A stretch of 18,100 nucleotides of DNA. Origin: a virus. The stretch lies in UHGV virus genome UHGV-0199914, one strand, 5' to 3'. This document shows positions 1,675 to 11,225 of the stretch, piece after piece; position 1 is the stretch's first letter; every line of letters starts with the position of its first letter. The notes below the pieces were generated by a model that had not been told where the DNA came from, did no database searches, and saw only the letters and a program-made list of their open reading frames with translations. The translations under genes were made by a program, and so were the position numbers.

Positions 1675-3201
1675 ATGCGCGAACCAGTGTATTTAGAAGA
1701 TGTCTTTAAACTTTCGGGTATCCCGACAATTACTTTTGTTGAACCTAACGAGTATAAACACCTCTATGTGTCGATAAGAACAGCGGGAAGAGGGGTAATT
1801 ATTGAAGGGCCATCAGGTATAGGGAAGACGACTTGCGTAAGACAGGTTATTGAAAAGTTAAAATTCGAGACCAGTAGTCGGATAATTAAAGAGTTTAAAG
1901 TATTGTCTGGAAGGAAAAAGGAAGATAAAGCCCAGATTGAAAATATAATAACAACGAGTGGTTTCGGTGGGGTGATTATTGATGATTTTCATAAGTTAGA
2001 TGATGAGTTGAAGCATAAAATATCTGACTTGCTGAAAAATTTAGCGGATGAACAACCCTTAGATTCTAAGTTGATTATTATAGGTATAAATAAAACAGGC
2101 AAATCACTGATTGATTTATCACCGGATTTACTAAATCGAATCTCCATTGTTAAATTTGAGTCCAATCCGGAATATAAGGTCAGGGAGTTGCTAGAAAAAG
2201 GTGAGAATGCGCTTAATTTCAAACTAAATGTAAAAGAAGATATTGTAAAGGACTCGGATGGGGCATTTCATCTGGCGCAAATGTTGGCTTATAATGCTTG
2301 TTTACAGGCTGATATCACAGAAGAGTTAGAATCTCCTCGGGAAACAAATATTAGCTATGAATCACTTAAAGAAACAGTGATTCAGGATCTTAGCTATAGA
2401 TTCAATGATATAGTCGTTCGCTTTGTGAAAGGCCAGCGGGTTAAAAAGGGTAGTAGAGCTCCATATCTCCACGTTTTATATTGGTTATCTAAAGAAGATG
2501 AGCGTTCTTTAAATTTGACAAGTTATTTAATTAACAATCCTAATCATCGTAATAGCGTTGGGCAAATTCTGACGCGAGGCCATTTAAAAACGCATTATGA
2601 GAGCAATCCTGATTTTTCGGATGTTATTCATTATAATGATGAAACTACGGAGATTTCAATCGAAGATCCCAAGTTTTATTATTATATAAAGAATTTGTTA
2701 TGGAGCAAGCTTGCGGAGAAGATAGGTTTCACATCATTTGAGTTTAAGTCGAAATATGACTTTGCTTTATCATTTGCTGGAGCTAATAGAAATCATGCGG
2801 AGTATTTAAATCAAAAGCTGATTGAGAATGAGTTATCTGTTTTTTATGATTTCAATGAGCAGGCCAGAATACTTTCTGAAGATGTAGAACAATATCTTGC
2901 TCCAATTTATAGGAGTGAGTCTGTTTTTGTAATTCCGTTTTTGAGTAGGGATTATCCAACTAGAATATGGTGCAAATTTGAAGGTGATACATTTAGGGAT
3001 AGATTTGGTGATGGGTGTGTTATTCCTTTAAGATATAGTGATGCACCTGTTGGCATGTTTGATACTGCCAATGGCATTGGAGGTTTTACCATAAATCCTA
3101 GTGAGGATATATACGCACAGCTAGATACATTTGCAAACTTGCTTGTTGAAAAAATATGTGAAAAAAGAATGCTCTTAAATGGAAAAGAGAATGAGGAATA
3201 A
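1675..3201 (+). CDS. P-loop NTPase fused to a C-terminal TIR-like domain; candidate single-gene anti-phage defence protein (cargo at the P2 orf30 position)
   Basis: 508 aa. Walker A GPSGIGKTT at nt 1807-1833 and Walker B VIIDD at nt 1972-1986, followed by DFHKLD (STAND/NB-ARC-like hhhhDD kinase-2 pattern). The C-terminal part (about aa 360-490, nt 2752-3140) carries TIR hallmarks: FALSFAG (betaA), SVFYDF, SESVFVIPFLSRDY, and TRIWCKFE with a Glu at aa 436 (nt 2980-2982) in the position of the TIR catalytic Glu after the conserved WC. The gene is about 32% GC against about 50% for flanking tail genes, and has its own promoter-like sequence and RBS. Confidence 0.8.
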   Translation: MREPVYLEDVFKLSGIPTITFVEPNEYKHLYVSIRTAGRGVIIEGPSGIGKTTCVRQVIEKLKFETSSRIIKEFKVLSGRKKEDKAQIENIITTSGFGGVIIDDFHKLDDELKHKISDLLKNLADEQPLDSKLIIIGINKTGKSLIDLSPDLLNRISIVKFESNPEYKVRELLEKGENALNFKLNVKEDIVKDSDGAFHLAQMLAYNACLQADITEELESPRETNISYESLKETVIQDLSYRFNDIVVRFVKGQRVKKGSRAPYLHVLYWLSKEDERSLNLTSYLINNPNHRNSVGQILTRGHLKTHYESNPDFSDVIHYNDETTEISIEDPKFYYYIKNLLWSKLAEKIGFTSFEFKSKYDFALSFAGANRNHAEYLNQKLIENELSVFYDFNEQARILSEDVEQYLAPIYRSESVFVIPFLSRDYPTRIWCKFEGDTFRDRFGDGCVIPLRYSDAPVGMFDTANGIGGFTINPSEDIYAQLDTFANLLVEKICEKRMLLNGKENEE

Positions 3202-3283: not shown

Positions 3284-3919
3284 ATGAACACTCTCGCAAA
3301 TATTCAGGAACTCGCGCGCGCACTGCGCAACATGATTCGTACCGGCCTTGTCGTCGAAACCAACCTTAAAGCCGGTCGCTGCCGTGTGCAGACCGGTGGC
3401 ATGTGCACCGACTGGCTTCAGTGGCTGACCCATCGTGCCGGACGTTCGCGCACATGGTGGGCACCTTCCGTGGGGGAACAGGTGCTGATTCTGGCTGTGG
3501 GCGGTGAACTCGACACGGCGTTCGTTCTGCCGGGGATTTATTCCGGCGATAACCCCGTGCCGTCTGCGTCGGCGGATGCCCTGCATATCCGTTTCCCTGA
3601 CGGGGCGGTGATTGAGTATGAACCCGAAACCAGTTCACTGACGGTAAGCGGAATTAAAACGGCCAGCGTGACGGCTTCTGATTTTGTTACTGCCACGGTG
3701 CCGGTGGTCACGGTGAAAGCATCAACCCGCGTCACCCTGGACACACCGGAGGTGGTCTGTACCAACAGGCTGATTACCGGCACGCTGGAAGTGCAGAAGG
3801 GCGGGACGATGAGCGGCAACATTGAACACACCGGCGGTGAACTCTCATCAAACGGTAAGGTACTGCATACCCATAAACACCCCGGCGACAGCGGCGGCAT
3901 AACCGGGAGTCCTTTATGA
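3284..3919 (+). CDS. V: baseplate spike / assembly protein V
   Basis: The ORF is open from 3239, but the recognisable gpV sequence begins at the internal ATG 3284 (MNTLANIQELARALRNMIRTG...), giving 211 aa, the size I recall for P2 gpV. The 15 upstream codons (MGGLPCCFLGGILPV) look like intergenic read-through. Confidence 0.8.
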   Translation: MNTLANIQELARALRNMIRTGLVVETNLKAGRCRVQTGGMCTDWLQWLTHRAGRSRTWWAPSVGEQVLILAVGGELDTAFVLPGIYSGDNPVPSASADALHIRFPDGAVIEYEPETSSLTVSGIKTASVTASDFVTATVPVVTVKASTRVTLDTPEVVCTNRLITGTLEVQKGGTMSGNIEHTGGELSSNGKVLHTHKHPGDSGGITGSPL

Positions 3920-5176: not shown

Positions 5177-5699
5177 TTCGCGACTGCTGCCGACCGGCTC
5201 ATCACCGCTTGAAGTCGCCGCCGCAAAAGCCTGTGCGGAAATTGAAAAAACGCCGGTCAGTATTCGTGAGCTGTGGAACCCGGATACCTGTCCGGCAAAT
5301 CTGCTGCCGTGGCTGGCGTGGGCGTTTTCGGTCGACAGGTGGGATGAAAAGTGGCCGGAAGCGACAAAACGCGCCGTTATCCGCGATGCCTATTTCATCC
5401 ACTGTCATAAGGGCACTATAGGTGCAATCCGGCGTGTGGTGGAGCCGCTCGGCTATCTCATCAACGTGACGGAGTGGTGGGAAAACAGTGACCCGCCAGG
5501 CACTTTCCGGCTTGATATTGGTGTACTGGAAAGCGGCATCACAGAGGCAATGTATCAGGAAATGGAACGGCTGATTGCTGATGCCAAACCTGCAAGCCGC
5601 CACCTTATTGGCCTGAACATTACCCGGGACATTCCCGGCTATCTGTTCGCCGGTGGTGTGGCTTACGACGGCGATGTAATTACGGTTTACCCCGGATAA
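5169..5699 (+). CDS. I: baseplate / tail protein I
   Basis: 176 aa, overlaps the J stop by 8 nt; matches P2 gpI in size and synteny. Confidence 0.85.
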   Translation: MSDSRLLPTGSSPLEVAAAKACAEIEKTPVSIRELWNPDTCPANLLPWLAWAFSVDRWDEKWPEATKRAVIRDAYFIHCHKGTIGAIRRVVEPLGYLINVTEWWENSDPPGTFRLDIGVLESGITEAMYQEMERLIADAKPASRHLIGLNITRDIPGYLFAGGVAYDGDVITVYPG

Positions 5700-5709
5700 G
5701 TGAGGAATA

Positions 5710-7575
5710 ATGAGCACAAAATTCAGAACCGTTATCACCACTGCCGGTGCAGCAAAGCTGGCAGCGGCAACCGCACCGGGAGGGCGGAAGGTCAACATTA
5801 CCACGATGGCCGTCGGGGATGGCGGTGGTAAATTGCCTGTCCCGGATGCCGGACAGACCGGGCTTATCCATGAAGTCTGGCGACATGCGCTGAACAAAAT
5901 CAGCCAGGACAAACGAAACAGTAATTATATTATCGCAGAGCTGGTTATTCCGCCGGAGGTGGGCGGTTTCTGGATGCGTGAGCTTGGCCTGTACGATGAT
6001 GCGGGAACGTTAATTGCTGTGGCGAACATGGCTGAAAGTTATAAGCCTGCCCTTGCCGAAGGCTCAGGGCGTTCGCAGACCTGCCGCATGGTCATCATCG
6101 TCAGCAGTGTGGCCTCAGTGGCGCTGACCATTGACACCACAACGGTGATGGCAACGCAGGATTACGTTGATGACAAAATTGCAGAGCACGAACAGTCACG
6201 ACGTCACCCGGACGCCTCGCTGACCGCAAAAGGTTTTACTCAGTTAAGCAATGCGACCAACAGCACGTCTGAAACACTGGCCGCAACGCCGAAAGCGGTA
6301 AAGGCCGCCTATGACCTGGCTAACGGGAAATATACTGCACAGGACGCCACCACCGCGCGAAAAGGCCTTGTTCAGCTCAGTAGTGCGACTAACAGCACGT
6401 CTGAAACGCTCGCCGCAACGCCAAAAGCAGTAAAGACCGCCTATGACCTTGCTAACGGGAAATACACTGCACAGGATGCCACCACAGCGCGAAAAGGGCT
6501 TGTTCAGCTCAGTAGCGCCACCAACAGTGATTCGGAAACGCTGGCCGCAACACCAAAAGCGGTGAAGTCTGCCTATGACAATGCTGAAAAACGTCTTCAG
6601 AAAGATCAAAATGGCGCGGATATTCCTGATAAAAGATTATTCCTGCGCAATATTGGAGCAACAAATTCAACAACCATGTCTTTTAGTGGTGGTACAGGAT
6701 GGTTCAGGCTGGCAACTGTAACCATGCCACAGGCCAGTTCCGTGGTTTACATAAGTCTGATTGGTGGTGCTGGATATAATGTTAACTCCCCTATGCAGGC
6801 TGGTATATCTGAACTTGTTCTTCGTGCGGGAAATGGAAATCCAAAAGGTCTTACTGGTGCGTTATGGCGACGGACATCGGTTGGATTTACTAATTTTGCA
6901 TGGGTGAATACATCCGGTGATACCTATGATGTTTATGTTGAAATAGGTAATTACGCCACAGGTGTTAATATTCAGTGGGATTATACCAGTAACGCCAGCG
7001 TAACGATTCATACATCACCATCTTATACAGCGAATAAACCAACAGGCCTGACAGATGGAACTGTATATGTAATTTACAGTTCGCACATTAAACCGACTGC
7101 TGCTGATGTTGGGGCGTTGTCATTATCTGGAGGTCAATTGAATGGTGCACTGGGCATCGGAACATCCAGTGCTCTTGGCGGTAACTCGATTGTTTTGGGT
7201 GATAATGACACGGGCTTTAAACAAAATGGCGACGGTAATCTGGATGTTTATGCTAATAACGTCCATGTTATGCGCTTTGTCTCCGGTAGCATTCAAAGTA
7301 ATAAAACCATAAATATTACGGGGCGTGTTAATCCCACAGATTACGGTAACTTTGATTCCCGCTATGTCCGGGATATCCGGCTTGGTGGTGCTGCCACATA
7401 CAAACCTGCGAACAATGGCATGACATGGACACATCAGGCACCGTCCGGGTGTATATATTCCGGCATTATTGTTCAGGATACCGGCTCAAACTCTGCCGAT
7501 AACATTGGTGGCGTATATTACAGACCGGTTCAGAAATACATTAACGGGACATGGTATAACGTGGCACAGGTATAA
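5710..7575 (+). CDS. H: tail fibre protein H (mosaic: conserved N-terminus, tandem fibre repeats, divergent low-GC distal domain)
   Basis: 621 aa. N-terminus MSTKFRTVITTAGAAKLAAATAPGG is typical of P2-type gpH. It contains three tandem copies of a 44-aa fibre repeat, and composition shifts to AT-rich from about 6600 onward. Confidence 0.85.
   Translation: MSTKFRTVITTAGAAKLAAATAPGGRKVNITTMAVGDGGGKLPVPDAGQTGLIHEVWRHALNKISQDKRNSNYIIAELVIPPEVGGFWMRELGLYDDAGTLIAVANMAESYKPALAEGSGRSQTCRMVIIVSSVASVALTIDTTTVMATQDYVDDKIAEHEQSRRHPDASLTAKGFTQLSNATNSTSETLAATPKAVKAAYDLANGKYTAQDATTARKGLVQLSSATNSTSETLAATPKAVKTAYDLANGKYTAQDATTARKGLVQLSSATNSDSETLAATPKAVKSAYDNAEKRLQKDQNGADIPDKRLFLRNIGATNSTTMSFSGGTGWFRLATVTMPQASSVVYISLIGGAGYNVNSPMQAGISELVLRAGNGNPKGLTGALWRRTSVGFTNFAWVNTSGDTYDVYVEIGNYATGVNIQWDYTSNASVTIHTSPSYTANKPTGLTDGTVYVIYSSHIKPTAADVGALSLSGGQLNGALGIGTSSALGGNSIVLGDNDTGFKQNGDGNLDVYANNVHVMRFVSGSIQSNKTINITGRVNPTDYGNFDSRYVRDIRLGGAATYKPANNGMTWTHQAPSGCIYSGIIVQDTGSNSADNIGGVYYRPVQKYINGTWYNVAQV
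6229..6580 (+). repeat. three tandem in-frame about 132-bp direct repeats inside H (K-G-[FL]-[TV]-QLS-[NS]-ATNS-[TD]-SETLAATPKAVK-x-AYD motif units)
   Basis: Unit 1 at 6229-6360, unit 2 at 6361-6492, unit 3 from 6493 (diverges after about 6580). Units 1 and 2 are near-identical 44-aa blocks ending ...GKYTAQDATTAR. Confidence 0.85.
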
Positions 7576-7578
7576 TTT

Positions 7579-8106
7579 ATGCAGCATTTGATAAATATAA
7601 CAGCGGGGAATCCAAAAACGGTTGAACAATATCAATTGACAAAGGGTTTTGATGTTGTCTGGTTTTTTTCAGAAGATGGTAAGAACTGGTACGAAGAACA
7701 AAAGTATTTTGCTGATGACACGATAAAAATAGCGTACGACAAAGATAATATTATCCGCTATGTGGAAAAGGATGTGACAGCTATCAGACCAGATGGATTA
7801 AGTGTTGTTGAAGTGCCAGATATTACTGCTAACCGACGGGCGGACATTTCAGGGAACTGGATGTTTAAGGACGGCACAGTGATTAAACGAATTTATACGG
7901 CGGAGGAATTGCAGCAGCAGGCAGAAAATCGGAAAGCCAGACTTCTAGCAGATGCTGAATCCGTGATTTTGCCGCTGGAACGCGCGGTCAGGCTGAATAT
8001 GGCAACAGATGAGGAACGCAGCCGACTGGAGGTTTGGGAACGCTATAGCGTTCTGGTCAGTCGTGTGGATCCTGCGAATCCTGAATGGCCAGAAATGCCG
8101 CAATAA
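7579..8106 (+). CDS. G: tail fibre assembly chaperone G
   Basis: 175 aa immediately after H. The C-terminal part is conserved gpG-like and the N-terminal part is AT-rich, co-varying with the H tip. Confidence 0.8.
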
Positions 8107-8163
8107 GTTGTATGAGCTCTGGTGTGAGCTGACATATCTATGGCAAAGAGTAAAGCCTAATCT

Positions 8164-8195
8164 GACAGTCCGCTCTGTGCCATGAGCGGACTGTC
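8164..8195. terminator. perfect 12-bp inverted repeat (GACAGTCCGCTC / GAGCGGACTGTC, 8-nt loop); possible terminator between convergent G and the minus-strand cargo gene
   Basis: Stem at 8164-8175 and 8184-8195 read directly from the sequence. No clean U-tract on either strand, so function is uncertain. A second 8-bp palindrome AGATTTAC-GT-GTAAATCT follows at 8203-8220. Confidence 0.35.
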
Positions 8196-8390
8196 AATAA
8201 ACAGATTTACGTGTAAATCTTGAAGCTATACATATTTACTTTCAATGATAAATAAAAGAACCACCCCAAAATCACTGAAAGTATATTTTAACTAACCACC
8301 TGCAACTACTAACATTAATTTCACTCAACCTCAAAGAGTCGTAATTAAAATGATATGTATAGCAATTTGCCTCGATACGAATCATATGAA

Positions 8391-9089
8391 TTATATTTTT
8401 CCATGCTTTTCACCGTCAAATCGAGTCATGCTAGGATCAAGAAAATAAATCAAATCAATTAACGCATGTTGTATTCTGATTAGCCTTTCTTTATAAGGCT
8501 CGATATTTTTTGTCATATTTATCACTTCATTGTTTAAATCTAAAAAAAATGGTTCATTGACAAAGCAATTTTCCTTTGTGAAACCGCCGTAACCTATGCA
8601 ATCAAATCCAGCATCTGTTGATATCAACATCTTTTCCGCAATAGCTCTCTGCTCTCCTATGAAAAACATAAAATACTGACCAAAGGCGTCTGTTTGGATT
8701 AATGAGTTAATATTGTTCTGTAATCTAATAAACTCCCTCATTTTTTTATTTTTTTCTAGACTAAGGTATTGAATGTCTATGCGGGCAGCTTCTGCCCATG
8801 CAAAGAACTGGGAAAAAAGAAAAACCGTATTTTTGATAACATAATCTTGTTGGCGCTTACTCCCATTATGATAAAACTCTTCAATAAACCCTAATTCTAA
8901 TATGTTATAAATGCGGCTTTGTAAGTCTGAAGCTGAGCGAATTAACGGTTCAATATAGTACTGATGTTTTCTCCTTACATCCAGTGTTTCATTGAGCTTG
9001 TTTATTCTATTCTGATTATAGGTAGATATAGCAATAGAGATTATAGATATTGCACCACCAATAAGGCTTGAAATTAATGCCACACTCAT
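8391..9089 (-). CDS. hypothetical membrane-anchored protein, cargo at the P2 Z/fun position; function unknown (candidate defence / exclusion factor)
   Basis: 232 aa on the opposite strand to the tail operons. ATG with AGGA 8 nt upstream. N-terminal single transmembrane helix (SVALISSLIGGAISIISIAISTY), then a roughly 210-aa domain without motifs I recognise. Sits in an island of about 30% GC. Confidence 0.7.
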   Translation of the reverse strand: MSVALISSLIGGAISIISIAISTYNQNRINKLNETLDVRRKHQYYIEPLIRSASDLQSRIYNILELGFIEEFYHNGSKRQQDYVIKNTVFLFSQFFAWAEAARIDIQYLSLEKNKKMREFIRLQNNINSLIQTDAFGQYFMFFIGEQRAIAEKMLISTDAGFDCIGYGGFTKENCFVNEPFFLDLNNEVINMTKNIEPYKERLIRIQHALIDLIYFLDPSMTRFDGEKHGKI

Positions 9090-9911
9090 CTAAAAGTCCT
9101 TTGATTTTCTTGGTTAACAAAATGACATGGTTTTATTTAATGTCGCAGCAACTTAATAATACACCATGATATGATTATTATGGTGTGATTTTTTGCATCT
9201 GTAATCCATTACAAACAGATGCAAGGTATAACTTGTCTATTTTCAGTCAGAAAATTCGTAAACATCCAAAGTAGCCTCATCAAACTCTTAAAATTCTATA
9301 CATTTGAGTGTAAAGATTTTAAATCCAGCTGCATGGTATCGACTCATGTTTATTATATTTTTTATTTGTAATTAAAGGTTGCATTATTTTCGATAATAAA
9401 TCATCGCAAGATTGAAATATGATTTCACTTGATGCAATGTTTCATGTGGCCCAGCGATTTGAGTTACACCCAGCTGTACGGGTAATATAAATCAAATTGA
9501 TGAACTTTTGATACACTCCTCTCTCTTCATTACTTTATGTTTTTGCTCTCAAAAATATCTTGCTCTCTGAAAATTATTCTTTAAGTTCAAAGTCGAGGAC
9601 TGCATGAGTGTTAGATACAAAGCTAATATGTTGAAATGTTTTTCATCTCCCCATAACGGCATTATTATCTAAAATATTTACACAAATATAGAATCACCCC
9701 TTTAACGTAAACTAGGAATCAAGTTAACACCATTATATATATCATAAACATGATATTTTGTATATTTTTATCATTTAGCCTTGATTGTACAGGGCGTACT
9801 CTCAACGAAGTAGGGAAAGTCTGTTTTTCGCTCAAAGCTGGCTGTCAGATTTGATAGCATTTGGGCTATGTAAATTGTCAGTTGGAGAATGAGGGAGTAA
9901 AAATCAGGACA

Positions 9912-9938
9912 GGCGGGCGAATTGCCCGCCTTTTCTTT
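9912..9938 (+). terminator. rho-independent terminator (stem GGCGGGC / GCCCGCC, loop GAATT, then TTTTCTTT)
   Basis: GC-rich 7-bp stem at 9912-9918 and 9924-9930, immediately followed by a T-rich tract at 9931-9938 on the + strand. Located at the boundary between the AT-rich island and the FI upstream region. Confidence 0.6.
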
Positions 9939-9944
9939 ATCTGT

Positions 9945-10007
9945 TGTTTCATCCACTGACCAGCCAGGTCAAATAGCGTCTCATGTACTACCCAACGGAA
10001 AATAGTT
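9945..10007 (+). promoter_or_regulatory. candidate late promoter for FI: imperfect dyad TGT-N12-CCA at 9945-9962 and -10-like AATAGT at 10002-10007
   Basis: Partial match to the TGT-N12-ACA late-promoter element, centred about 55 nt upstream of a plausible start site about 25 nt before the FI ATG. One mismatch in the dyad; geometric inference only. Confidence 0.3.
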
Positions 10008-10034
10008 GCACCCATTAACCACGGAGTTAAACGG

Positions 10035-11225
10035 ATGAGTGACTATCATCACGGCGTGCAGGTGCTGGAGATTAACGACGGCACCCGCGTCATTTCCACC
10101 GTATCCACTGCCATTGTCGGCTTGGTCTGCACGGCCAGCGATGCGGATGCGGAAACCTTCCCCCTCAATAAACCTGTGCTGATTACCAATGTGCAGAGTG
10201 CAATTGCAAAGGCTGGTAAAAAAGGCACGCTGGCGGCATCGTTGCAGGCCATCGCCGACCAGTCAAAACCGGTCACCGTTGTCGTGCGTGTGGAAGACGG
10301 CACCGGCGACGACGAGGAAACGAAACTCGCGCAGACCGTTTCCAATATCATCGGCACCACTGACGAAAACGGTCAGTACACCGGACTGAAAGCCCTGCTG
10401 GCGGCGGAGTCGGTAACCGGTGTTAAGCCGCGCATTCTCGGTGTGCCGGGACTGGACACCAAAGAGGTTGCCGTCGCACTGGCATCAGTCTGTCAGAAGC
10501 TGCGCGCTTTCGGGTATATCAGCGCATGGGGCTGTAAAACCATTTCCGAGGTGAAAGCCTACCGCCAGAATTTCAGCCAGCGTGAGCTGATGGTCATCTG
10601 GCCGGATTTCCTCGCATGGGATACGGTTGCCAGTACCACCGCCACCGCGTATGCCACCGCCCGTGCGCTGGGTCTGCGCGCTAAAATCGACCAGGAGCAG
10701 GGCTGGCATAAAACTCTGTCCAACGTCGGGGTAAACGGTGTTACCGGCATCAGCGCATCTGTATTCTGGGATTTGCAGGAGTCCGGCACCGATGCTGACC
10801 TGCTTAACGAGTCAGGCGTCACAACGCTGATTCGCCGCGACGGTTTCCGCTTCTGGGGTAACCGTACCTGCTCTGATGACCCGCTGTTCCTCTTTGAAAA
10901 CTACACCCGCACTGCGCAGGTGCTGGCCGACACGATGGCTGAGGCGCACATGTGGGCTGTGGATAAGCCCATCACCGCAACGCTGATTCGCGACATCGTT
11001 GACGGCATTAATGCCAAATTCCGTGAGCTGAAAATAAACGGCTATATCGTGGATGCGACCTGCTGGTTCAGCGAAGAATCCAACGATGCGGAAACCCTCA
11101 AGGCCGGAAAACTGTATATCGACTACGACTATACACCGGTGCCTCCTCTCGAAAACCTGACCCTGCGCCAGCGTATTACCGATAAATACCTGGCAAATCT
11201 GGTCACTTCGGTTAACAGCAATTAA
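10035..11225 (+). CDS. FI: contractile tail sheath protein FI
   Basis: 396 aa, GGAG 9 nt upstream, followed by the tube gene; sequence recognised as P2 gpFI-like. Confidence 0.9.
   Translation: MSDYHHGVQVLEINDGTRVISTVSTAIVGLVCTASDADAETFPLNKPVLITNVQSAIAKAGKKGTLAASLQAIADQSKPVTVVVRVEDGTGDDEETKLAQTVSNIIGTTDENGQYTGLKALLAAESVTGVKPRILGVPGLDTKEVAVALASVCQKLRAFGYISAWGCKTISEVKAYRQNFSQRELMVIWPDFLAWDTVASTTATAYATARALGLRAKIDQEQGWHKTLSNVGVNGVTGISASVFWDLQESGTDADLLNESGVTTLIRRDGFRFWGNRTCSDDPLFLFENYTRTAQVLADTMAEAHMWAVDKPITATLIRDIVDGINAKFRELKINGYIVDATCWFSEESNDAETLKAGKLYIDYDYTPVPPLENLTLRQRITDKYLANLVTSVNSN

Follow-up and report, generated by a model that had tools for sequence, protein, structure and literature searches.

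Since the early 1990s, textbooks have described how P2, Mu, P1, lambda, and T-even phages exchange fiber tips and their chaperones as modules. Phage P2 (NC_001895) encodes the fiber gpH and its partner gpG in the order I-H-G, followed by a cargo slot and FI. Phages Mu, D108, P1, and P7 possess the S/U pair, and Mu, P1, and P7 have invertible G/C segments. Mosaicism has also been described for Yersinia phage L-413C. Specifically, the account of its gpH in PMC7460101, which summarizes Garcia et al. 2008, depicts a hybrid whose N-terminus resembles that of P2, whose middle is a mosaic without homology, and whose C-terminus is P2-like in part. Here, we analyze a tail-fiber locus in an 18,100-nucleotide stretch of the virus genome UHGV-0199914, called the window. 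Analogous to L-413C gpH, the window fiber has this same architecture, but its middle and tip modules are different ones; the passage on gpH in PMC7460101 mentions no repeat number.

The locus consists of two genes:

5710 to 7575, plus strand: gene H, tail fiber, 621 aa (open reading frame; PF12571 and three PF03406 matches; P2 late-gene order)
7579 to 8106, plus strand: gene G, tail-fiber assembly chaperone (Tfa), 175 aa (PF02413; match to Mu U; identity to P2 G)

We consider it very probable that H and G are the tail-fiber/chaperone pair of a P2-like (Peduovirus) Escherichia coli prophage beside yegQ, its two-way evolution included. In the list of open reading frames (ORFs), G starts 4 nt past the H stop. 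The late-gene order, V-W-J-I-H-G-(cargo)-FI, is P2-type, with V, J, I, and FI recognized by Pfam, and fiAA91-ss, P2, and E. coli prophages have a matching order. H displays features of a Peduovirus gpH, namely a P2-like PF12571 N-domain, the late-operon position, and PF03406 repeats. G likewise displays features of the Tfa/Caudo_TAP family: PF02413 (E 5e-34), full-length similarity to Tfa, a gene adjacent to the fiber gene, and a variable N-domain joined to a conserved C-domain. NCBIfam has no family for H, G, or two cargo proteins. The closest complete genome, GDAR2-2, shares the attachment site and the cargo of the window and carries 4 repeat copies. Two antisense ORFs within H (6244-6609 and 7123-7434, minus strand) are without support and were treated as spurious.

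In the cargo region between G and FI, 8391-9089 is the only non-spurious-looking ORF of at least 60 aa. A neighboring ORF matches the PADLOC "RT-associated TM" model. Upstream of the cargo ORF lies an unannotated stretch of 760 nt, which we considered and rejected as a non-coding RNA: it has no Rfam match. The stretch has diverged by 17%, as against 9% at four-fold sites of the adjacent ORF, and thus shows no sign of constraint.

We compared the window with 68 relatives (69 loci in total), most of which (80%) are 99-100% identical in gene I. The sources were 80 viral contigs, whose gene I identity is 99-100%, and 4 annotated relatives. Module clusters, defined at 85% amino-acid identity, number 1 for the H N-domain, 10 for the middle module, 4 for the last 75 aa of H, 2 for the G N-domain, and 1 for the G C-domain. 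The invariant part of H is the following:

5710 to 6228, plus strand: conserved N-terminal domain, aa 1-173 (PF12571 at aa 1-151; identity across the panel; identity to P2)

PF12571, the P2-type tail-collar fiber N-terminus, matches H aa 1-151 with an E value of 3e-58. Amino-acid identity of the domain is 97-100% over all 69 H genes, and nucleotide identity to P2 is 97%, a level maintained up to 6437. The P2-type N-terminus of the original prediction is thus borne out, with H aa 1-251 being 95.6% identical to P2 gpH. This domain probably attaches the fiber to the baseplate. Homology to P2 H is not colinear over the full length, since similarity is undetectable for H aa 252-448 and amounts to 36% of amino acids (77% of nucleotides) for aa 449-621. 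P2 gpH also differs in its length, 669 versus 621 aa, and in its number of PF03406 repeats, of which it has 2. The G proteins of the window and P2 are 75% identical in amino acids.

The N-terminal domain is followed by a repeat array:

6229 to 6580, plus strand: 2.66 tandem PF03406 repeats of 132 bp (44 aa), at 6229-6360 and 6361-6492, with a partial unit at 6493-6579

Pfam reports three "phage tail fibre repeat" stretches between H aa 170 and ~300 (E 3e-61), and Tandem Repeats Finder reports a period of 132 bp with 2.5 copies at 6252-6579 (87% matches, no indels, score 502). Self-identity at offset 132 reaches 0.84 over the best 220 nt; 200 shuffles give at most 0.36. Three near-identical in-frame repeats had been predicted. 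At the protein level, this description fits the first two units, which lie exactly where they had been placed and agree at 40/44 residues. At the DNA level, the two are 86% identical and thus clearly diverged, with 12 synonymous and 4 non-synonymous codon differences. The third unit is only partial: 27 of its first 29 residues match unit 2, and there the similarity ends. PMC3368898 and PMC8078820 offer no settled structure for the PF03406 unit.

The expectation that such repeats allow copy-number variation agrees with the panel, in which repeat number ranges from 1 to 6 in exact, in-register multiples of 132 bp. H length varies from 621 to 860 aa, and the window H is the shortest. The 336-aa distal module of the window occurs behind 3, 4, and 5 motif copies. 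Compared with the 5-copy allele of E. coli ECC-1470, the window array is the same array minus exactly 264 bp, in register. Specifically, unit-by-unit identities between the two alleles show positional orthology: the first 88 nt of window unit 2 are 100% identical to ECC-1470 unit 2, the last 44 nt are 100% identical to unit 4, and the deletion crossover joins the 3' part of unit 2 to unit 4.

Mean PF03406 repeat number drops as the distal module lengthens (Spearman -0.67, p 0.006, for 15 distal-module types, uncorrected for relatedness). A tentative idea, which we consider unlikely, is that gpH repeat number is a tuned length compensator rather than a product of neutral slippage. If so, selection would hold or adjust the total reach of the fiber, for example, to the depth of the O-antigen or capsule. 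The 132-bp array would then be an adjustable element, and the 3-copy allele of the window would have been adapted to some specific host surface.

Assemblies are well known to go wrong at tandem repeats, and the 3-copy array could instead be an assembly collapse or the mark of a decaying, non-functional prophage. The window allele is indeed the shortest, all 10 of the other panel loci with its distal module have 4 or 5 copies, and there is no colinear 3-copy match among the complete E. coli genomes listed, with copy counts read indirectly from match spans. However, DNA differences of 14-25% between the units make them resolvable in an assembly, and the deletion preserves both reading frame and register exactly. 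Moreover, the identical 621-aa protein, deposited at NCBI as "tail fiber protein," is present on 54 independent contigs, one of them 4.9 Mb in length, and the neighboring late genes are all intact ORFs. We judge collapse or decay to be very unlikely and take the short array as a genuine allele.

Beyond the repeats, H and G are composed of the following segments:

6610 to 6657, plus strand: junction box NGADIPDKRLFLRNIG, where recombination delimits the variable region on its left
6658 to 7341, plus strand: middle module, ~aa 317-544, low in GC, rich in Gly/Asn/Thr/Ser, independently assorting
7342 to 7386, plus strand: conserved box YGNFDSRYVRDIRLG, separating the middle module from the tip
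7387 to 7521, plus strand: variable core of the fiber tip, ~aa 560-604, traveling with the G N-domain
7522 to 7575, plus strand: conserved C-terminal end RPVQKYINGTWYNVAQV and stop codon
7579 to 7947, plus strand: variable N-terminal part of G, with the lowest GC (0.38-0.40)
7948 to 8190, plus strand: conserved C-terminal part of G and ~85 nt downstream, right-hand homology arm

The check suggested at the outset, alignment of H and G to P2-like relatives, located breakpoints at 6585/6626/6654, 7316-7385, 7516-7521, and ~7950. On the left, homology to other H types stops at 6585, 6626, or 6654. At the end of the middle module, identity to two P2-like loci (L046 and L018) and to Muvirus vB_YpM_5 drops from over 0.9 to 0.5-0.6 after ~7365-7385, and homology to fiAA91-ss-type and related types is back at 7316, 7342, or 7354. 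Homology to P2 and other classes returns at 7516-7521, with an identity of 0.91 in the bin from 7550. Between G classes, nucleotide identity climbs to 0.85-0.95 from 7948, and alignments to every H/G type extend to 8179-8203.

These comparisons support the prediction that the receptor-binding end is exchanged horizontally: behind N-domains that are 97-100% identical, the post-repeat part of H in the 68 relatives comes in no fewer than 10 unrelated types. The distal part of H had further been proposed to co-vary as a whole with the G N-terminus. For the last ~75 aa of H, the proposal is correct, as four types of this segment map onto two G N-domain types with no exception in 69 loci. For the middle module (~6626-7365), the proposal fails. 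This module is independent of G: middle modules 0, 1, and 4 are each paired with two different tip/G classes, and the window's own middle module is 96-100% identical to that of L046 and L018, which belong to the other tip/G class. Correlations of pairwise identity with the G N-domain are 0.75 for the last 75 aa of H, 0.29 for the middle module, and 0.04 for the H N-domain. Distal H is two modules, not a single cassette. Physical proximity could account for part of the linkage between tip and G N-domain, and the panel loci are not phylogenetically independent.

Similarities of the middle module reach beyond the P2-like phages. The interval 6598-7385 is 93% identical in nucleotides to a part of Muvirus vB_YpM_5, namely the Sv' portion of its invertible segment, which lies next to a hin invertase; in contrast, the tip and U of that phage are only 74% identical to their window counterparts. 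H aa 306-548 share 45-55% of amino acids with T2-like gp37 distal fibers over 66-83% of the length, and there is a weak match to PF20744 (gp37_trimer) together with a match to PDB 6F45. Unlike in T-even phages, the chaperone is a Mu-U-type Tfa and not gp38/gp57, and the N-terminus and virion context differ.

Base composition changes along the locus as had been predicted. GC (GC3 in parentheses) is 0.56 (0.60) in the H N-domain, 0.54 in the repeats, 0.42 (0.48) at 6581-7090, and 0.46 (0.51) at 7091-7575. In G, it is 0.39 (0.38) at 7579-7880, and the conserved C-terminal part regains a GC of 0.51 at 7881-8106. The AT-rich region, 6600-7880, averages 0.429, whereas intervals of equal length from the remaining late genes have a mean of 0.560 +/- 0.011, the lowest value being 0.541. 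The expected richness of distal H in Gly, Thr, Asn, and Tyr is present as well: with Ser included, these residues account for 47% of H aa 306-621 and 30% of the N-domain. That enrichment would suit an explanation in which low GC is an amino-acid or structural constraint of a Gly/Asn/Thr/Tyr-rich, beta-structured fiber, with no exchange required, and so would the identical GC profile of P2 H/G (distal H 0.41-0.46, G N-part 0.38, G C-part 0.51). Yet GC3 drops too, to 0.38-0.51 from 0.58-0.67 in the backbone. Exchange is moreover evident without recourse to composition, from the unrelated modules behind a 97-100% identical N-domain and from the 93% identity to Muvirus. We thus find constraint highly improbable as a substitute for exchange. 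Because P2 H/G has the same profile, the GC profile alone dates no transfer. Low GC at 6600-7950 characterizes the shared module pool and does not mark a recent event in this prophage.

The tip and the chaperone are kin to those of Mu. G aligns from end to end with Mu U, or TfaMu (residues 1-175 to 1-175, PDB 5YVQ_B, E 1e-83), and residues 535-620 of H pair with residues 423-503 of Mu S in an alignment to the S-U complex (5YVQ). Farther upstream, H aa 232-320 correspond to S 91-175, the NGADIP box included; box NGADIPDKRLFLRNIG aligns with Mu S residues ~150-175, and box YGNFDSRYVRDIRLG aligns with Mu S as well. Tip and G together are 72-75% identical in nucleotides to the S/U genes of Mu, D108, P1, and P7. 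Unlike in Mu, the N-terminal attachment domain is P2-type. The panel holds 2 classes of G N-part, with 60-71% amino-acid identity between them (nucleotides 0.63-0.80). The variable part of G, which had been predicted to span its first half, reaches ~7950, roughly two thirds of the gene. A secondary source, PMC9608196, describes the TfaMu N-domain as the fiber-binding, non-conserved part, and the variable N-terminal part of G presumably binds the fiber likewise. Homology and the exceptionless linkage of tip and G N-domain suggest that G is needed for folding of the cognate tip.

The same kinship could suggest a Mu/P1-type invertible host-range switch in which an invertase flips alternative Sv/U cassettes, given that the H tip and G are homologous to S and U of Mu, that a cassette within the Muvirus invertible segment shares 93% identity with the middle module, and that the junction box matches the inverted-repeat boundary of that segment (the same GADIPDK-coding sequence forms its inverted-repeat ends), but we give this idea almost no credence, as 5600-10100 contains neither an additional Sv'/U' cassette in inverted orientation nor an inverted junction-box copy, and downstream there is no recombinase-like ORF, 8391-9089 having no Pfam family. 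Unlike the Mu, P1, and P7 segments, the window thus lacks an invertase, an alternative cassette, and inverted repeats. A diversity-generating retroelement acting on the fiber was also considered and rejected: the repeats are direct, in-frame, and tandem, not a template/variable pair, and no window ORF scanned has a Pfam match to reverse transcriptase.

For the preferred reading, a fiber/chaperone pair that exchanges modules and changes its repeat number, we propose that the two proteins work as follows. An H trimer would dock on the conserved baseplate via its invariant N-domain, the 44-aa PF03406 repeats would form the shaft, and, judging by homology, the two exchangeable distal modules at the end of the fiber would recognize the cell surface. 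The variable N-domain of G would bind the matching tip, and its conserved C-terminal part, again by homology, would drive trimerization. The evolution of the locus, as the comparisons show, follows two routes. One is homologous recombination at short conserved boxes, namely NGADIP..F..NIG, NFDSRYV.D.RLG, the INGTWYNVA end joined to the beginning of G, and the C-terminus of G. Through it, the middle module and the tip-plus-chaperone unit are swapped between P2-like phages, Mu-like phages, and, at a greater distance, T-even-like ones. The other is in-register unequal crossing-over between the 132-bp repeats, by which whole 44-aa units are gained or lost; the window's 3-motif (2.66-unit) allele arose from a 4- or 5-copy allele by loss of 132 or 264 bp.

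The finding of a mosaic H/G pair is correct but ordinary, because host-range change by swappable modules and spacer repeats of varying number is well documented and the biology is already known. The exact H protein has already been deposited with a correct annotation, which leaves little discovery value. The practical value lies in the fine breakpoint map and its four conserved boxes. In engineering P2-type phages and tailocins, modules would be swapped at the boxes, and the last ~75 aa of H would be kept with their own G. The map is likewise useful in typing Peduovirus prophages. For this group, the picture is of a near-invariant P2-like backbone on which the middle module, the tip-plus-chaperone unit, and the repeat number each vary independently.

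The late-gene half of an Escherichia coli prophage of the P2-like (Peduovirus) kind makes up the window. Specifically, Pfam searches and an ORF map give the order lysis genes, R, S, a cargo ORF, V, W, J, I, H, G, a second cargo slot, FI, FII, E/E', T, U, D and ogr, followed by the host gene yegQ on the minus strand. The same prophage occupies the same site in complete E. coli genomes (90% of the window aligns at 96% identity). Two adjacent genes concern us here:

5710-7575: H, tail fibre gene, 621 aa
7579-8106: G, its Tfa-type assembly chaperone gene, 175 aa

The elements of the original prediction, namely a P2-type N-terminus, tandem repeats, low GC in distal H and the start of G, and GC recovery, all lie where they had been placed. 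The P2-type tail-collar fibre N-domain PF12571 covers H residues 1-151 (Pfam, E 3e-58), and three stretches of the PF03406 "phage tail fibre repeat" follow it, matching the three in-frame repeats foreseen. Tandem Repeats Finder gives a 132-bp period repeated 2.5 times at 6252-6579, matching at 87% and free of indels; the third unit is partial, with 29 matching aa and unique sequence beyond. "Near-identical" proved apt for the protein, units 1 and 2 sharing 40/44 residues in the phase first proposed, and too strong for the DNA, which is only 86% identical (12 synonymous and 4 non-synonymous codon differences). At the nucleotide level, self-identity at offset 132 is 0.84, versus at most 0.36 across 200 shuffles. 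The course of GC is as had been described: 0.54-0.56 in the N-domain and repeats, 0.42-0.46 in distal H, 0.39 in G codons 1-100 and again higher, at 0.51, in the remainder of G, with GC3 running in parallel. Across 6600-7880, GC is 0.429, about 12 standard deviations under the other late genes (equal-length windows, 0.560 +/- 0.011). P2 H and G have the same GC profile. Thus, low GC is a property of a shared module pool and provides no date for transfer into the window's prophage.

Exchange of the distal end is evident in a panel anchored on gene I, comprising 80 viral contigs that encode the window's I protein at 99-100% identity. Intact H and G were readable in 64/80; four annotated relatives were added, making 69 H genes with the window. 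These proteins range from 621 to 860 aa. Behind an N-domain that is 97-100% identical, the post-repeat sequence comes in 15 length types and forms at least 10 sequence clusters, many pairs having essentially no similarity, which supports the proposed horizontal exchange of a predicted receptor-binding end. Compared with P2, the window's DNA is 97% identical from gene I to 6437 and 77% identical across 7521-8203, with no homology between 6437 and 7521 except an 87-nt patch. At the protein level, H residues 1-251 are 95.6% identical to P2 H, residues 252-448 are unmatched in it and residues 449-621 are 36% identical; G is 75% identical. Homology to P2 is broken across H, and thus the colinearity named beforehand as contradicting a mosaic fibre is absent.

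Distal H is two modules rather than one. Aligned pairwise by BLAST with representatives of the H types, the window shows left breakpoints at 6585, 6626 or 6654; where a type has fewer repeats, the break falls inside the array, at 6303 or 6437. Homology restarts at 7316-7354 in one group of types (92-95% identity) and at 7410-7521 in the remaining types (about 75-80%). In sliding-window comparisons from ~6600 to ~7365, the P2-like loci L046 and L018 are 96-100% identical to the window, and Muvirus vB_YpM_5 is 89-100% identical with one dip; identity of all three is 0.5-0.6 at 7370-7505 and back to 0.91 at 7550-7595. With module clusters cut at 85% aa identity, three middle-module types in the panel are each paired with two different tip/G classes, whereas the tip, meaning the final 75 aa of H, has four types, each confined to one of the two G N-domain types with zero exceptions. 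Pairwise-identity correlations with the G N-domain are 0.75 for the tip, 0.29 for the middle module and 0.04 for the H N-domain. The predicted co-variation of distal H with the G N-terminus therefore stands for the tip and fails for the middle module, which sorts independently. Nucleotide identity between the classes of G is 0.63-0.80 as far as ~7950 and 0.85-0.95 from ~7950 to ~8190, so that the conserved right-hand stretch ends some 85 nt beyond the G stop. Module boundaries fall on short conserved peptide boxes:

6610-6657: peptide box at module boundary, NGADIPDKRLFLRNIG
7342-7386: peptide box at module boundary, YGNFDSRYVRDIRLG
7522-7600: peptide box at module boundary, with the start of G, RPVQKYINGTWYNVAQV
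C-terminal third of G: fourth conserved boundary segment

Both modules have counterparts outside P2-like phages. G aligns end to end with TfaMu (Mu chaperone U, PDB 5YVQ chain B, E 1e-83). Mu S 423-503 aligns with H residues 535-620, and Mu S 91-175 with residues 232-320 (the last repeat and junction box). Tip and G DNA shares 72-75% identity with S/U of Mu, D108, SfMu, P1 and P7. The middle module matches a vB_YpM_5 cassette (94.7% aa, 93.3% nt over 6598-7385) that adjoins a hin invertase within an invertible segment; the tip and U of that phage are only 74% identical to the window's. More distant matches to the middle module are gp37, the distal long-tail-fibre subunit of T2-like phages (45-55% aa), and the fibres of Felix-O1-like phages (about 38%). 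The inverted repeats bounding the vB_YpM_5 invertible segment encode GADIPDK, which is the window's left-breakpoint box. Its coding sequence lies at 6610-6632 in the window and at 3490-3509 and 6396-6415 in vB_YpM_5. One conserved box thus appears to be a homologous-recombination arm in P2-like phages and to stand at a site-specific inversion boundary in Mu-like phages. We found no invertase in the window, and no second cassette or inverted partner of the junction box within 5600-10100; the window employs Mu-type parts without the Mu-type switch.

Repeat number varies, as anticipated. PF03406 copies number 1, 2, 3, 4, 5 and 6 in 7, 17, 9, 26, 9 and 1 panel loci, and every distal type sampled beyond a few times shows more than one copy number. 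The window's 336-aa distal module (96-100% identical) occurs with four copies in E308, GDAR2-2 and locus L013 (665 aa), with five in ECC-1470 and six others (709 aa), and with three in the window alone within the panel. An assembly artefact could yield a three-copy array, but the same 621-aa protein occurs on 54 contigs, among them one of 4.9 Mb, which argues against it. Units are positionally orthologous among phages, unit i being nearest unit i. Compared with ECC-1470, window unit 1 equals unit 1 (97-100%), the first 88 nt of unit 2 equal unit 2 and its last 44 nt unit 4 (both 100%), and unit 3 equals unit 5 (100%): an exact 264-bp in-register deletion with its crossover in the 3' part of a unit. 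GDAR2-2, the nearest whole-prophage relative, is one repeat unit apart. We found no explicit report of such polymorphism in Peduovirus H in the literature, and it is an unsurprising outcome of a tandem array. Repeat number correlates negatively with distal-module length (Spearman -0.56 for 69 loci; -0.67, p 0.006 for 15 types; both uncorrected for relatedness), a possible sign that overall fibre length is constrained. In H types with 1-2 repeats, the shaft includes other sequence.

Both cargo positions are occupied. Between S and V, at the P2 orf30 position, a 508-aa ORF (1675-3201, +) combines an N-terminal AAA/STAND-like ATPase with a C-terminal TIR_2 domain (E 4e-6, slightly below the Pfam cut-off). 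The protein also hits PADLOC candidate PDC-S59 (E 1.5e-19) and is present on 299 contigs, named "TIR domain-containing protein" or "AAA family ATPase" in NCBI. It is likely a prophage-borne anti-phage defence gene. GDAR2-2 carries a different gene on the opposite strand there. In the P2 Z/fun slot between G and FI lies a low-GC (0.34) module (8109-9848) flanked by imperfect 37-nt inverted repeats (8159-8195 / 9815-9851, 73% complementary). Its one ORF (8391-9089, minus strand, 232 aa, N-terminal TM helix) has no Pfam or NCBIfam family, is named "lysogenic protein" in NCBI and weakly matches the RT-associated TM protein of DRT systems in PADLOC (E 5e-7); the flanking 282 nt and 760 nt hold no ORF of at least 60 aa. 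The entire 1.74-kb unit also occurs in E. coli U15A (86.6% identity), in a non-P2 context adjoining ImmA/IrrE and LprI genes. An 811-nt query spanning the non-coding part (9090-9900) has at least 80% coverage in 411/5,426 genomes, with no annotated feature among the matches listed. Divergence is faster in the non-coding part (17%) than at the ORF's four-fold sites (9%), and Rfam gives no match for it; no constraint is therefore evident. A strong terminator-like hairpin (9911-9931, +; 9 bp, 7 GC, T-run) lies ~100 nt upstream of FI, whereas P2 has an annotated V-operon terminator before fun(Z). Slot content differs among the relatives examined (L001, L002, L003 and L086): orf20 in fiAA91-ss, a 1041-nt hypothetical gene in ECC-1470, two hypothetical genes in E308 and fun(Z) in P2. 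A cargo hotspot directly beside the conserved end of G would fit this pattern.

P2-type H is already known to be mosaic, and the novelty of the fibre finding is minimal. Haggard-Ljungquist, Halling and Calendar reportedly described, in 1992, P2 H and G segments common to Mu, P1, lambda and T-even fibre genes. Going by the summary of Garcia et al. 2008 in PMC7460101, L-413C gpH is a four-part hybrid, just the kind of architecture in the window's H.

To the observed module boundaries, independent assortment, cross-family identities and in-register copy-number changes we add a mechanism that we mostly infer, by homology. The N-domain would hold the trimeric fibre on the conserved baseplate, shaft segments would be built from the repeats, and the middle and tip modules would touch the cell surface. 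The description of the TfaMu N-domain as the fibre-binding, non-conserved part (secondary source PMC9608196) fits G, which has a variable N-terminal and a conserved C-terminal part and is strictly linked to the fibre tip. The interpretation of H as a mosaic with an exchangeable end is thus supported in refined form: two independently assorting distal modules, with the chaperone linked to the tip only.
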